Source: Escherichia phage vB_Eco_D226
Sequence record: MN080711.1
Reading direction: 5' to 3' (one strand)
DNA: 40,050 nt
Positions within the stretch are counted from its first letter, which is position 1, and each line of letters opens with the position of its first letter. Of this stretch, positions 300 to 40,050 are shown piece after piece. Below the pieces are notes generated by a model. The model was not told the origin of the DNA. It saw only the letters and a program-made list of their open reading frames with translations, and ran no database searches. A program made the translations under genes and the position numbers.

Positions 300-456
300 A
301 GAGCGTCCTCCTTGTTATACTTGATGGTTGCACTGATAGTTAGGGATGTAATTACTATTACTATCATCCCTCACTGTAAGGGTCTCTAAGAGTAGTCACT
401 AAGTATGCACTTTGCATATGCAGTCTATAAGTGTCTTTAAGTTGTCTTAGGGTGCC

Positions 457-479
457 CTTCCCAATAGTGAGTCGTATTA
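457..479 (-). promoter_or_regulatory. Phage RNAP promoter phiOR
   Basis: Reverse strand reads TAATACGACTCACTATTGGGAAG, matching the window promoter consensus. Confidence 0.8.
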
Positions 480-545: not shown

Positions 546-992
546 TCACTTTACGTGCATATTTAGTTTACCCTCACGAGCCTTCTTGACCCACTGGATG
601 TTTACTCCAAGTTTCTTAGCCACTTCAGCGTCTGTACCGTCAGCCGAGAGTACGGCATTTAGTCTCTTATCAAACGCCTGTTGAACCTTCTCGGCGTGAC
701 TCAGGCGCGTACCAGAGGCACCTCCACGAATCATTCGGCCTTTAGTCCTACAGTCCTCAATGTTCTCTTTCTGTGTTCCCTCAGATAAGTGCGCTGGGTT
801 AACACACGCAGGGTTGTCACAGGAGTGCATCACCACACATCCTTCCTTTAAGGGACGCTTTAGGTGGACTGACAGTGCGTATCGATGTGCCATCCAATGA
901 ACACCATCAACACGAATCCTGCCATACCCACCTTTAGTCTTACACCCTTGGAAGATGTGGCAACCAGTTATACTATCAATTGCCACTCTCAT
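546..992 (-). CDS. HNH endonuclease (putative homing endonuclease), 148 aa
   Basis: Motif VMHSCDNPACVNPAHL...N typical of HNH nucleases; start MRVAIDSITGC with AGGAGGT 6 nt upstream; the ORF-track N-terminal extension overlapping gene 19 was trimmed. Confidence 0.8.
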   Translation of the reverse strand: MRVAIDSITGCHIFQGCKTKGGYGRIRVDGVHWMAHRYALSVHLKRPLKEGCVVMHSCDNPACVNPAHLSEGTQKENIEDCRTKGRMIRGGASGTRLSHAEKVQQAFDKRLNAVLSADGTDAEVAKKLGVNIQWVKKAREGKLNMHVK

Positions 993-1014
993 TATATACC
1001 TCCTATTATCTATA

Positions 1015-2775
1015 TTACCACTCAATGAAGCAGCTAGAGTCTCCATCGTCCTCATAGTAGATGTCCACGCCACCAACATCGTAGCTATGGATAGCATCGC
1101 CACCAATGGTCTGTTTCTCCATGTGATGTTCAAGGAACTCAAGAGTCATCTCTTCCTCACCGATACGACTGTCTACAAGCATCCCCTCGCGTAGCCATTC
1201 GATACCCAATGCGATAGCATCAAGTCGGTCATCGTGTGCCACAGCGCCTCGCTCACGAGTCATACGGGTCATCTGATAGAACGCACTGTAGCGAACATCA
1301 TGTTTCCCATCAAGGTCACGAGCAGTCTGGTAGTCCTCACGGATAACCTCATCACGAATGACCAGCTTGTGCGCACCCATCAACGGTTCGATAGTATCGC
1401 AGATTCGCATCTCCTTCATGCCTTTAGCACGGATTTCCTCTAAGGCACACTTGTGGTGCTTCAGGAGAATCGGAGAGAAAATCTTACCGAACATACCATC
1501 ACCGAAGTTGGACTCGTGGACGACTGTCTGTACCTTCCACTGCTTGGCCTTCTTAGCGAGCTTCTCTAGGGTAGCATCATCGTAACCACCACGGAACCCA
1601 CCGACTTCCATCAAGTAGATATAACCGTTAAGTGAGTAGAGGACTGCATACCCGGTCTCATCCTTACCACGACCACTTGGGTCAATGACCAGAATCTTAG
1701 ACTGATACTCAGCGGTACGAGAAGAGCACGTATGGAACGCATGGATGTCATCACCCTTCAGACCAACGTTAGGGAGTTCCTCATTGCGGTTCTGACGGTT
1801 CGGCAACCACTGGTAAGACAATGGGGCACGTTCGGGGTCCACAGCGCACACGATAGCATCACGGAGTCGTAGCGGGTACTTCTCGGCATCACTAAGGTTC
1901 GGGTTAAGCATGAACTGAAGCGTGTAGCCAGCTTTACCATATTCGAGTTCACGCTCACGGAGGTCATCCATGTCGAATCGAATAGGGTCAGTAGGTTGTC
2001 CACGAAGAATCTCGTAGCCTTCATCATATTCAGCCTTAAGCATCGGAGCCAAGCGGTCCCCATAGTAGAGAGCCTCAGCGTCATTACGTGGATACTGTGC
2101 AGGCCAGATTACAGTGCTGTACCCTTTGTTATCCTCAAGTTCCTTGTAGAGCGTCATCTCGGTTTGAGGTGTGCCAAGGTAGATAACACGAGAGGTAGGC
2201 AGTGGCTTAAGTAATGCAGCAAACTCAGTTACCAACGTCCAGAGCTTCTCACGGGCAGAACTCGTAGAGCTATTACCGGGAACCTCAACGTCATCTGCGA
2301 TGATGATGTCAGCACGGCTACCAGTTAACTGACCAGTGATACCCACAGACTTCACAGAGGGTGAGTGGTCAGGTTTAGCTAATCCAACGTCGAAGCTAAT
2401 CACGGAGTCACGCTGTCCCGGTCGAGGTTTCAACTCAGCGAGGAATGGCAGCAGGTCAATGATGTTCTTGATGAAGATGGAGTTAGCATCCGCACGTTCC
2501 TTAGAGGCAGACACTATGAGCACCTTAAGTTGAGGGTCACGCCATAAGACCCACACGACGAACGCACAGGTGATAAAGGACTTGCCGATACCACGGAACG
2601 CCTGAAGGATAAACTTCTTGTGGTCGCCGTTAGCGAGTGTACGTGCCATATCAATCTGACACTTGGTTGGTTTAGGTAAGTTCAGAGCCTTCCATAAGAC
2701 GAACAGGAAGGCCACGAAGTCACCCTTAAGTTGCGCAATGATTAATGCGTTCTTAGCTCCTTGGGATTGTGACAT
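1015..2775 (-). CDS. 19: Terminase large subunit (gp19)
   Basis: 586 aa, same length and strong similarity to T7 gp19 as recalled; last structural gene in T7 order. Confidence 0.97.
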
Positions 2776-4192: not shown

Positions 4193-5920
4193 TTATCCTT
4201 GAGATGCAACCTGACGTTTATTACCGTTGTGATACCCTATCCACATGCCTCGGTGCTGCATACCAGTACAGACACCACCAACGTTGAGCACAATCCCAGT
4301 ACACACATGACCGGACCCAACAACAAGTTCCTGATAGGCACCATTGTGGGGATACCACTCAGGGTTAGCGAGCCAGATGTCACCGGGGAAGTTGGCACGA
4401 ATCCAATCCGCAATGTTGTTCTGAGGCCCGAATGCACTGCCGATGATGTTACCATCACCACCTAATACACTACCACCATGTGTTCTGAAAGAGCCAGAGA
4501 CTACCTGACGTGGGGCATGGAAGTCCCCATCATGCGTCCACATGTAGGAGGCATCTACAGCACCTGACTCATGCGTTGTTACCAAGTTCCATTGTGCAGT
4601 ACGGTTGGTATCTATAAGAGTACCCATTGTCCACGCTCGGGCATCTCGACCTGCTTGGTAAGAGCGCTGTTTGATTAGTGGGAAATACTCATTACCAGAT
4701 GACTCTCTAATTTGCTGCCACAATGGTGCATAAACATTATACTGGTCAGCATGTCCAGCAGCGAAGCTGGCCTGTGAATCAATAAGGTCTTTGGTAATTA
4801 CCCGGTTGTTTAATGTAGTGCGGGGATAGATGTCTAGCGTAGGAACACCCGATACCGGATATACGAAGTGCATATGCGTGAAAGCACCTCCGCCTACCTG
4901 ACCGCCCGGTAGTTCCATGACCAAATCAGAGTGCAGGGCGTTTCCTTCAGCCCATAACCCTTGCCGCCATACATGCGATGTGTTTTCACTTCTCCGTATC
5001 GCCGTGGCATTTGAGAATCTGTGAATCCCTTTCCAAACAACATCATTTCCACTTACGCTTTCAATTGCAGCGGCAATAGCATTATTATTCTCTAACTTGT
5101 TAGCTTCGAGTATTGCCCTGTCTTCTGAAGCCTTAGCGGCAACTTCTGAAGCCTTAGCAGCAACTTTTGACTCATTTGCCAATCTGGCATCCGCAGCAGC
5201 AGAACTAGCGGAAGAAGCGGCTTGTGTCTCAGAGATCTTCGACTTGTTGACTGATTCATCGGCCCACGCAGCATCCGCTGCTACCATCTTGCGCATCCGC
5301 TCAACGTCAGCTTGAATAGCCTTTGCCCACTCATTGTATTGCTTAGATGAGTATCGACCGTCTGCAATCACTCCGTCTCCAGCAGCCCAGCGCATAGACC
5401 AGTTAGCGGAAGATGCTGCTTCTGTCTTAGAGTTCCATGCTGATTCATTCCAGCCCTTTACCTGACCAAGATTGATAGCATCACCATCCTCTACAGCATT
5501 CGCTAGGTTCACAATGCGGCGACCACGCGCATCTAGGTTCCCATCGTTGTTAACGCCAATCGTATCCGCTGTTAAATCACGAGCCTCTTCAGCAACGTGA
5601 AGTGTCTGGATTTGAGCAATGTTCAGGTCATAAGCACGGAGGATAGAACCATCAGCAAAGTCCACCAGACGGTCGGTAACGGAGGTGTAACGACGAATCT
5701 CAATCATGGTGTATCCATCAGATGGACTCCACGCACGAGTGGTTGTGATTTGAGTCTTAGTGGTAAACCGGAAGTCCTGATTCAAGACCAACTCTTTGCG
5801 GTCTTTACCAATAAGAGTCACCGAAACGAACTTACGCGCTAGATACTCAAACGTGATACCGAAGTCCACAGTAGAGCCATTCAGCGGGTAAGTCATTACG
5901 GTACGAATTTTAAGAGCCAT
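4193..5920 (-). CDS. 17: Tail fibre protein (gp17) with divergent C-terminal receptor-binding region
   Basis: N-terminal ~150 aa (FEYLARKFV.VTLIG.DRK ... RLVDF.DGSILRAYDLN.AQIQT.HVAEEARDLT.DTIGVNNDG.LDARGRRIVNLANAV) matches T7 gp17; the remainder is unrelated to T7. Confidence 0.92.
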   Translation of the reverse strand: MALKIRTVMTYPLNGSTVDFGITFEYLARKFVSVTLIGKDRKELVLNQDFRFTTKTQITTTRAWSPSDGYTMIEIRRYTSVTDRLVDFADGSILRAYDLNIAQIQTLHVAEEARDLTADTIGVNNDGNLDARGRRIVNLANAVEDGDAINLGQVKGWNESAWNSKTEAASSANWSMRWAAGDGVIADGRYSSKQYNEWAKAIQADVERMRKMVAADAAWADESVNKSKISETQAASSASSAAADARLANESKVAAKASEVAAKASEDRAILEANKLENNNAIAAAIESVSGNDVVWKGIHRFSNATAIRRSENTSHVWRQGLWAEGNALHSDLVMELPGGQVGGGAFTHMHFVYPVSGVPTLDIYPRTTLNNRVITKDLIDSQASFAAGHADQYNVYAPLWQQIRESSGNEYFPLIKQRSYQAGRDARAWTMGTLIDTNRTAQWNLVTTHESGAVDASYMWTHDGDFHAPRQVVSGSFRTHGGSVLGGDGNIIGSAFGPQNNIADWIRANFPGDIWLANPEWYPHNGAYQELVVGSGHVCTGIVLNVGGVCTGMQHRGMWIGYHNGNKRQVASQG

Positions 5921-21319: not shown

Positions 21320-21367
21320 TAATATTCTCCTTAAAGTTAAACTTAAAGTAGGTATCATATAGGCACC

Positions 21368-26140: not shown

Positions 26141-28058
<1,918 letters not shown>

Positions 28059-33602: not shown

Positions 33603-33661
33603 GATTGTGTTTCCTCTTAAAGTTAGAACTTAAAGTATCTTAAAGTTTAGGAAGCCCGAAG

Positions 33662-38252: not shown

Positions 38253-38711
38253 TTACTGTACTTGCCAGCGGCGACCGAACTCATCAATGGTGAAGCAGCC
38301 TTTCAGTGCCTCGGTGCGTGGGACTTCTTGGAAGCTACCGTGCAGACGTTCAGCTTTATAACCATCAATGCCTTTAGCGTACACTAAGCCAGCCGTGTGA
38401 GTCTGTGACTTATAGACCAGTACACAATCTTGCTCGAACTCATTACACGCCAGACGTGCGACCGCTATTGCTTGAGCTTTGTTAGCACAGCGTACACGAA
38501 CAGTCAGTTCCTCAGTTGGTGCACTTGCGATAGCCTCCCGATAACAACCAGTCAAATCTGTAGACTCAACGCTACCGTATTCAAGCGGTGCATTACGCAG
38601 TGAGTTAACCATGTGACGATGACGACTCATATTGACTTCATCGCAGAGGTTAGAGCGGAACGCTGATACCAGTACATAGAATACGTTTGCAGGTTCGTTA
38701 GTGTAAATCAT
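38253..38711 (-). CDS. 0.3: S-adenosyl-L-methionine lyase (T3-type SAMase, anti-restriction), gene 0.3
   Basis: 152 aa; EPANVFYVLVSAFRSNLCDEVNMSRHRHMV...SVESTDLTGCYREAI...CVLVYKSQTHTAGLVYAKGIDGYKAERL.GSFQEVP...GCFTIDEFGRRWQVQ matches T3 gp0.3 as recalled, not T7 Ocr. Confidence 0.9.
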   Translation of the reverse strand: MIYTNEPANVFYVLVSAFRSNLCDEVNMSRHRHMVNSLRNAPLEYGSVESTDLTGCYREAIASAPTEELTVRVRCANKAQAIAVARLACNEFEQDCVLVYKSQTHTAGLVYAKGIDGYKAERLHGSFQEVPRTEALKGCFTIDEFGRRWQVQ

Positions 38712-39245: not shown

Positions 39246-39457
39246 CCACTTTCGTATGTCTGGTTGATGACTACTTGAGACACTTCAGCTTTACTAGATA
39301 ACTCGCGGTCTTGTCTAGTAGTTGGTAGCGTTGTGTCTCTCAACGGTCGCTATAGTCTCATAGCTGTTTCTTAGAGTCAATACTTAAAGTAACAAATAAT
39401 CGTCTTTAAGTGTCTTTAAGTTATCCCTATAAGGAATGGGAATAGTAATAGACACTC

Positions 39458-39480
39458 ATCCTCAATAGTGAGTCATATTA
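39458..39480 (-). promoter_or_regulatory. Phage RNAP promoter phiOL
   Basis: Reverse strand TAATATGACTCACTATTGAGGAT near the left end. Confidence 0.65.
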
Positions 39481-39483
39481 ACT

Positions 39484-39935
39484 ATATGGTCTTTTAGTGA
39501 GGCTTTAAGGCTGGTCTAAGAGTGGCAACGATAGGTCTATGGACTGAAGGCACTGACTGAAGGTTAACATAAGGATAACCAGCCATAAGGATAGACATAA
39601 GGTGATAACTCTAAGAGGTCATAAGGTGATAACTCAAAGGTCACTTACAGATAGGGACACAGAGAGGACTACATATAGTGGTCATAAGGTATCACTAAGC
39701 ACCATATCTAGTGGTAACACCTAGAGTTAACCCAATGTCTCACAAAAGGATTGACTTCAGGTAAACCATGAGTTACCATAGAGGAAGGCTCTTTGGGTGG
39801 ACTGAAGGAGGCCATAGGGGGGAACTCGGTGTTTATGAACTATGAGATACCCACTCAGATTTTTCTGTAGGATTCTTAAAGGGGTACATCAAGTATCTCA
39901 TAAGGTTATCCTTGGAGTGGCTATCATAAGGTTAG
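39484..39935. repeat. Left-end short-repeat array between the terminal repeat and phiOL
   Basis: At least eight CATAAGG(T/A) heptamers (plus strand) with longer copies such as ggtcataaggtgataactc occurring twice; non-coding. Confidence 0.6.
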
Positions 39936-40050
39936 ACTACGTGAGAGACCCTAAGAGACCCTGTAGACCATAGAGGGTACATAAGGGTTTACTCTTAGAG
40001 TTGACTTCTTACAGTGATAATAGGGAAGATGTATATCGACCATTATCACT
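39936..40050. repeat. Direct terminal repeat, copy at phage left end (identical to 1-115)
   Basis: Exact 115-bp identity with window positions 1-115. Confidence 0.9.

Follow-up and report, generated by a model that had tools for sequence, protein, structure and literature searches.

How transcription is converted into replication in phage T7, and why only some of its promoters work as origins, is reportedly poorly understood. The secondary origins phiOL and phiOR of T7 are described in the literature as promoter-dependent origins, not as carriers of an 8-bp repeated, helically phased motif; an adjacent A+T-rich segment is said to be required, and at the primary origin the switch from RNA to DNA reportedly takes place 10-60 nt from the promoters. 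We know of no origin-binding protein for T7. Replication of T7 begins at phi1.1A/B; with these deleted, secondary origins such as phiOR and phi6.5 are used instead (PMC8373140, citing Rabkin & Richardson 1988). Initiation of DNA synthesis is known for T7 phiOR and phi6.5 only, and two groups keep plasmids on the phiOR origin (PMC8373140; bioRxiv 10.1101/2024.07.25.605042). The transcripts of the phage polymerase are used as primers, and the helicase aids the DNA polymerase in acquiring the primer (PMC5997990).

Several other kinds of short element resemble the repeats studied here. The SRL and SRR repeats of T7, built of CCTAAAG units, are short direct repeats near the genome ends with irregular to regular spacing, and they are found in two intervals, terminal repeat to phiOL and gene 19.5 to terminal repeat. 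Iterons are tandem direct repeats of 17-22 bp, about one helical turn apart, beside easily opened origin DNA; to our knowledge, no cognate initiator protein has been described in T7-like phages, where initiation is by transcription. The class II pause signal is an 8-base, oriented signal of the same terminal region that is read by the elongating polymerase. Its consensus is reportedly (C/T)ATCTGT(T/A), and lysozyme is said to lengthen pausing and to stimulate replication. The lysozyme and pausing points of Zhang & Studier are partly restated in PMC3276506 and bioRxiv 10.1101/2024.07.25.605042, and a role of the polymerase pause signal in concatemer maturation is given in PMC3276506, citing Zhang & Studier 2004. 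No mention of an 8-mer that is phased and tracks origin-capable promoters across genera was found in the open literature searched, with the key older papers lying outside that search.

Genome layout and the concatemer junction

The window, that is, the whole 40,050-nt stretch of Escherichia phage vB_Eco_D226 (MN080711.1) that was analysed, represents a complete BA14/Berlinvirus-type, T7-like genome in reverse complement, and its minus strand carries all genes and 14 phage-type promoters. In BLAST searches, both window ends gave matches to Berlinvirus and relatives with 85-98% identity. The promoters nearest to the ends, phiOL and phiOR, agreed with the promoters annotated in BA14. The features of the window and the positions of the motif in related phages are shown in Table 1.

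The physical genome ends are not the window ends, the window being circularly permuted. Alignment with the experimentally annotated left end of BA14 (TCTCATAGTT...) placed the true left end at window position 39847, and alignment to BA14 1-194 placed the true terminal repeat at about 39652-39847 (~196 bp), where it is present in a single copy. An exact duplication of 115 bp (1-115 = 39936-40050) was found to the right of gene 19.5, among the short repeats there. This duplication is not the physical terminal repeat and has the look of an overlap from the assembly of a contig that is circularly permuted. In the concatemer, the order is gene 19, the HNH gene, phiOR, right array, palindrome, gene 19.5, short repeats, terminal repeat, short repeats, phiOL, left array and host promoters, with phiOR and phiOL on either side of the concatemer junction. 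The left array is within ~230 bp and the right array within ~510 bp of the true terminal repeat, and gene 19.5 starts ~160 nt beyond the phiOR start. A search for a host promoter downstream of phiOR gave none, and the A1-like promoter beyond the left array, which was placed by homology, was missed by a simple consensus scan.

Table 1. Positions of features in the window and of the motif in T7-group phages
Feature	Position	Strand	Sequence	Remark
phiOL, phage RNA polymerase promoter	39458..39480	-	TAATATGACTCACTATTGAGGAT	Aligned to the annotated phiOL of BA14
phiOR, phage RNA polymerase promoter	457..479	-	TAATACGACTCACTATTGGGAAG	Counterpart of the annotated phiOR of BA14
Left (phiOL-side) array	39402..39421	-	ACTTAAAGAC ACTTAAAGAC (gene sense)	Two perfect tandem decamers, +43/+53 of phiOL transcript
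Third, centre-flipped copy	39382..39390	-	ACTTTAAGT	Contains CTTTAAGT, exact reverse complement of ACTTAAAG
First host-RNAP (A1-like) promoter	39344..39380	-	TTGACT-17-GACTAT	Inferred by homology to BA14 'host RNAP promoter' 460-496
Right (phiOR-side) array	423..442	-	ACTTAAAGAC ACTTATAGAC (gene sense)	+21/+31 of phiOR transcript
Degenerate first unit of right array	443..452	-	CCCTAAGACA	
Small palindrome	404..422	-	TGCATATGCAAAGTGCATA	Immediately past right array
Class II pause/concatemer-junction signal	39646-39653	-	TATCTGTA	Inner end of true terminal repeat, as annotated in BA14 and K11
Array after promoter following gene 1	33613..33646	-	ACTTTAAGAT ACTTTAAGTTCTA ACTTTAAGAGG	T7/T3 primary-origin position
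Pair after phi6.5-like promoter	21328..21349	-	ACTTTAAGTTTAACTTTAAGGA	Two ACTTTAAG units
ACTTAAAG in T3	OL +16, OR +13			
ACTTAAAG in K11	OL +8, OR +33			
Motif in 'taattcgactcactata' group	OL ~+11 to +16, OR +31			
Motif in Berlinvirus, including the window	OL +43/+53, OR +21/+31			
Motif in T7	+11 of phiOL		ACTTAAAGAGACTTAAAAGA	phiOR: ACTTATAG and degenerate 11-bp units

Units of the CCTTATG type (gene sense) flank the terminal repeat at 39500-39690 and 39848-39935, where T7 has CCTAAAG units. There are 13 top-strand copies of CCTTATG in the genome and nine in the terminal region, two of the nine (gene-sense 65 and 40000) being one site counted twice through the 115-bp end duplication. The HNH gene, an insertion between gene 19 and phiOR, is a 198-aa ORF (546-1142, minus strand) whose product has an HNH endonuclease domain (Pfam HNH_3, E 1.3e-5); this gene was found in some relatives only, and the gap between gene 19 and phiOR is ~100 bp in some relatives and ~500-570 bp in others. 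Gene 0.3 (38253-38711, minus strand) resembles that of T3 in encoding an S-adenosylmethionine lyase (Pfam S-AdoMet_lyase, E 1.4e-41); its product is not of the Ocr type, unlike that of T7.

Repeats downstream of phiOL and phiOR

An earlier note on this DNA had described a 16-mer, TAAGTGTCTTTAAGTT, as shared by both genome ends inside tandem decamers downstream of the two end-proximal promoters, and most of this description was confirmed. The 16-mer has exactly two sites on the plus strand, 39407-39422 and 428-443, the latter one base away from the position 429-444 given before. The expected number by chance is 0, and 100 shuffles yielded no match even when up to two mismatches were allowed. 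Tandem Repeats Finder returned period-10 arrays at both sites, one at 39402-39421 (2.0 copies, 100% match, unit GTCTTTAAGT) and one at 423-448 (2.5 copies, 87% match), the right one reading directly as GTCTATAAGT GTCTTTAAGT followed by a degenerate TGTCTTAGGG. Both arrays do lie downstream of phiOL and phiOR in the sense of the minus-strand transcripts. What has to be corrected is the reference to genome ends, since the window ends are not physical ends; the two promoters nevertheless flank the concatemer junction.

In gene sense, the right site reads CCCTAAGACA ACTTAAAGAC ACTTATAGAC, and 21 of 22 bases agree between the left and right sites (A ACTTAAAGAC ACTTA[A/T]AGAC). The degenerate CCCTAAGACA unit is in register with the three-unit, 11-bp-phased arrays of K11-like phages and T7. 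The exact decamer was found four times on the plus strand (433, 27168, 39402 and 39412), the copy at 27168 falling inside a coding region, and not at all on the minus strand. The centre-flipped third copy on the left side stops one base short of the -35 of the first host-type promoter, and the same arrangement of ACTTAAAG followed by ACTTTAAGT, with ACTTTAAGT 20-68 bp further on, was also observed at OL and OR of both T3 and K11.

In the closest relative, L005 (IMGVR_UViG_2974600058, 99%; 4385-4443), two perfect ACTTAAAGAC units follow phiOR, and an extra ACTTAAAGTC lies ~40 bp beyond this pair, a copy that the window does not have. These differences indicate that the right array is already changing between near-identical genomes. 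T7 has a small palindrome, TGCATAAAGTATGCA, similar to that past the right array and in the equivalent place, after ACTTATAGAG.

Sites resembling the pentanucleotide of the T7 gp4 primase, 5'-(G/T)(G/T)GTC-3', were noticed at the joints of the decamers (GTGTC at plus-strand 39410-39414 and 431-435, TTGTC at 442-446), and their flanks are without the preferred '-10 element' by the criteria of PMC12839067. A primase site was rejected as the conserved function: GTGTC at the joints is particular to this phage, and the site is lost in BA14 (spacing 11, TAGTC) and in T7 (AAGTC), and is absent from the single-copy sites of T3 and K11.

Conservation of the 8-bp core among relatives

To compare the end regions of related phages, as had been suggested earlier, regions downstream of gene 19 were taken from 80 IMG/VR relatives, left ends from 16 more, and the genomes of T7, T3 and K11 were used whole. 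An unbiased k-mer count gave ACTTAAAG as the most widespread 8-mer in +7..+90 of both promoters, present in 16 of 18 sequence clusters for phiOL and in six of nine for phiOR, and this spread covers Berlinvirus, T3-like, T7-like and K11-like phages. The motif is thus conserved across genera, the sharing between the ends is not due to chance, and the element has been kept beside both junction-flanking promoters in several genera, indicating that it is under selection.

The four flanking positions on each side of the 8-mer are nearly uninformative, except that position 9 has a weak preference for A/T, so that the conserved unit is the 8-mer and the "decamer" reflects the local period only. On this sequence comparison, the decamers are this lineage's version of the 8-bp ACTTAAAG, with the general form ACTT[A/T]AAG. 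The flanks are unrelated between lineages, and the promoter specificities differ too. The motif is on the non-template strand and in one constant orientation relative to the promoter. Across lineages, 26 of 49 neighbouring pairs have a spacing of 10-11 bp, with further cases at 21-22 bp; close relatives keep the 8-mer but differ in the number of copies per site (1-4) and in the spacing of these copies. The T7-group phages (Studiervirinae of enterobacteria) have 1-4 copies, usually 10-11 bp apart, in the first 10-75 bp transcribed from their 'replication' promoters.

The left array aligns to the BA14 stretch between the annotated phiOL and the first host promoter, and comparison of the BA14 and T7 phiOR regions with the window showed homologous positions on the right side. 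The phiOR side of T7 has no exact copy of ACTTAAAG. On the top strand of the window, seven copies of ACTTAAAG were observed and ~0.75 expected. All eight exact copies in K11 are non-coding, located at phiOL, phi1.05 (three), phi6.5, phi13, phiOR and the right-end repeats (one). In T3, the terminal repeat holds copies (179 and 38156), and the right-end repeats hold an inverted one.

In more distant Autographiviridae, whose RNA polymerase is 35-46% identical (L101-L116), occurrences were found in coding regions only, and the motif is accordingly taken as confined to the enterobacterial Studiervirinae sampled. A related-locus search with the RNA polymerase reached few lineages beyond Berlinvirus.

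Copies at internal promoters

The motif family is also present at internal promoters of the window, 6 kb and 18 kb from the end. The array after the promoter following gene 1 consists of three tandem ACTTTAAG units, Berlinvirus relatives having 2-4 copies there, and in T3 a rep_origin is annotated at the equivalent place, over the T3 copy. After the phi6.5-like promoter, the second copy of the pair overlaps the ribosome-binding site, and in general the last copy at internal promoters overlaps the Shine-Dalgarno sequence. A restriction of the TTAAA form to terminal promoters was considered and holds for T7, T3 and the window, but it was refuted by K11-like phages, which have tandem ACTTAAAG after phi1.05, phi6.5 and phi13. 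The A- and T-centred forms are thus lineage variants of one family.

The replication promoters carrying the motif are phiOL, the promoter after gene 1, phi6.5 and phiOR. When these were treated as the origin class (with the first promoter after gene 1) in T7, T3, K11 and the window, ACTT[A/T]AAG was present within +100 of 15 of 16 origin-class promoters and of five of 42 others (Fisher 7e-9, a value that overstates independence because the class was fixed partly after the data had been seen and the four genomes are related). All five matches at the other promoters adjoin ribosome-binding sites. Single ACTTTAAG copies also stand beside the ribosome-binding sites of the T7 late genes 9, 10 and 17, and part of the motif family may be a translation-leader motif.

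Possible role at replication promoters

The arrays may be a DNA-level cis element of the replication promoters (secondary origins) of T7-group phages, a reading to which we tentatively give a probability of roughly 0.4, and judged from position and conservation they most likely serve the start of replication rather than packaging. The origin modules at phiOL and phiOR are an already known kind of element, and placing the arrays there would be the most economical reading. A phage promoter lies directly upstream of each array and fires towards it. The motif would be part of an origin module composed of a phage promoter and an adjacent easily opened segment, and would act as DNA. The phage RNA polymerase would initiate at phiOL or phiOR, the phage DNA polymerase and helicase would take the short transcript as primer within a few tens of bases, and the phased ACTTAAAG units would mark or condition this hand-off zone. 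The range where the motif sits is that given above for the RNA-to-DNA switch.

We infer both a contribution to origin firing and the contact used, which might involve a duplex of low stability with flexible TpA steps, sequence-specific pausing by the polymerase, or a binding factor. In duplex stability, the arrays rank in the lowest 2-3% of 20-mers in the genome (97th-98th percentile of instability). Within +110 of each of the four origin-class promoters there is a 20-mer of at least the 99.9th percentile, the local stability minimum being next to the arrays, not in them. The A+T content of +7..+66 is 0.67 at phiOL and 0.60 at phiOR versus 0.48-0.72 at the other promoters of the window, and is not distinctive. 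That a C and a G are conserved and that the spacing is helical points to recognition rather than to mere A+T richness. The phiOR of T7, which is the best-documented secondary origin, is without an exact copy, indicating that the exact motif is not required for origin activity.

Among the described systems, the secondary origins of T7 are similar in having the same positions (by alignment with BA14 and T7), a promoter just upstream, low-stability DNA and, in T7 itself, ACTTAAAGAGACTTAAAAGA after phiOL, and they differ in that A+T content is not distinctive in this phage and the conserved positions include C and G. The primary origin of T7 and T3 (phi1.1A/B in T7, phi1.05 in T3, with an A+T-rich region after each) corresponds to the place where the window has three ACTTTAAG and K11 three ACTTAAAG, although in Berlinvirus the central base is T, not A, and the last copy doubles as part of the ribosome-binding site of gene 1.1. 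The arrays share helically phased tandem repeats with iterons (10 bp here), but the units are of 8 bp here. The T7 SRL unit ACCTAAAGAC is one base off; however, the corresponding short repeats are CCTTATG in this phage and are separated by the promoters from the ACTTAAAG units, which also occur at internal promoters, and this sets the ACTTAAAG units apart from SRL/SRR.

A more far-reaching proposal, which we consider unlikely, is that the ACTT[A/T]AAG arrays would determine which T7-group promoters act as origins (phiOL, 1.1/1.05, 6.5, 13 and phiOR), being recognised either by the elongating polymerase, for which they would form a second pause or hand-off signal specific to replication, or by a DNA-binding factor, from phage or host, that occupies one face of the helix. 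A short, conserved and phased motif that tracks origin-capable promoters in four genera offers a mutable target for the origin question. It may also help in the design of T7-origin plasmids and orthogonal replication systems, which now use a phiOR fragment empirically, and in annotation it provides a simple marker for phiOL, phiOR and the true concatemer junction in permuted T7-like assemblies.

Alternative explanations

In the earlier note, the sharing between the ends was taken to suggest a role in concatemer processing or packaging initiation, or in pausing of the RNA polymerase. In a packaging role, the terminase (gp18/gp19) or another maturation factor would start or position cutting at arrays flanking the junction. 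The proximity of both arrays to the true terminal repeat and the T3 copies within the terminal repeat and right-end repeats agree with this, the DNA determinants of T3/T7 packaging specificity lie within 5% of the ends (PMC3276506), and the arrays do flank the junction. Packaging of plasmids is said to depend on the phiOR region together with the junction, which is counted here in favour of this explanation. The claim of a packaging role or end-specificity was nevertheless not upheld, because the tandem motif also follows the internal promoters far from the end, and because T3 and T7, although they discriminate each other's DNA at packaging (PMC3276506), have the identical 8-mer; as each packaging system prefers its own DNA, the 8-mer cannot be the specificity determinant. 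The right side of T7 has no exact copy, and the title of the first paper of Chung & Hinkle, as cited in PMC13172314, pairs the junction with 'a T7 replication origin', which points to an origin rather than a pac role, so that a packaging signal is quite unlikely. A sequence-specific pause or arrest site that holds the phage RNA polymerase soon after the promoter would fit the 8 bases of the motif, always on the non-template strand and in a single orientation, like the known class II signal, and the reported effect of lysozyme counts for it; a pause would suit primer hand-off and is compatible with the origin reading as its mechanism. On the other hand, ACTTAAAG is unrelated to (C/T)ATCTGT(T/A). 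That signal occupies its expected place, at the end of the terminal repeat, and has its sole minus-strand match there; four more are on the untranscribed plus strand (five in total, ~6 expected), and no match was found on the non-template strand in or near the arrays of the window. Pausing needs no preference for a 10-11 bp spacing, and the motif is found in the leaders of K11 genes of the 1.05, 6.5 and 13 types, where repeated pausing would cut expression, which leaves a pause site as such with a low probability.

It is very doubtful that the element acts at the RNA level, with ACUU[A/U]AAG serving in the leader as translation enhancer, stability signal or hairpin arm. The related 'epsilon' sequence UUAACUUUA of the gene 10 leader is said to act in the transcript, ACTTTAAG stands beside the Shine-Dalgarno sequences of T7 genes 1.1, 6.5, 9, 10 and 17 and of K11 genes 1.05, 6.5 and 9, and the minimum-energy fold of the phiOL leader has the flipped copy base-paired to the second one. 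However, the phiOL arrays precede a host promoter and no gene start, gene 19.5 begins well past phiOR, and the helical-repeat spacing points to duplex DNA. RNA structure was rejected as the function, as the two leader folds were not significantly more stable than those of shuffled sequences (z -2.0 and -1.0), the motif is unpaired in the phiOR leader, and Rfam gave no match. The left array lies 22-41 bp upstream of the A1-like -35, next to which the flipped copy ends, and some relatives share with T7 a copy overlapping the -35 (TTGACTTAAAG); the array could then be upstream activating or bent DNA for the first host-RNAP promoter, the right copy being a by-product of ancestry, or a member of T7-type SRL/SRR repeats, of which ACCTAAAGAC is one base different from ACTTAAAGAC. 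This is very unlikely, since phiOR has no host promoter after it and the distance from the motif to the -35 ranges from ~20 to 80 bp across lineages. Tracts of the T2A3 type are reportedly not intrinsically bent, which counts against bent DNA, and ACTTAAAG is retained in this phage while CCTTATG makes up the short repeats from the terminal repeat to phiOL, indicating two separate repeat classes. Finally, the readily shifting copy number among close relatives is what slippage predicts, and the arrays might have no function, being tandem duplications with the similarity between the ends kept by descent or gene conversion. Against the retention of the 8-mer in lineages with unalignable flanks and different promoters, the excess of top-strand copies in the window, and the exclusively non-coding, promoter-proximal or terminal location of the K11 copies, this is highly improbable.

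Similar repeats in other viral contigs

A scan of IMG/VR for the tandem pattern gave mostly unrelated A+T-rich contigs, in about the number expected by chance on a rough estimate, and its useful matches were those in K11-like phages. Long ACTTAAAG arrays of at least seven copies at period 10 or 11, or clusters of TACTTAAAGT adjoining sigma-70-like promoters, were seen in unrelated A+T-rich viral contigs, namely L152 (8673-8736), L191 (~4830-4890), L125, L127, L128, L159, L182 and L192. The repeats of these contigs may be an independent repeat or operator family.
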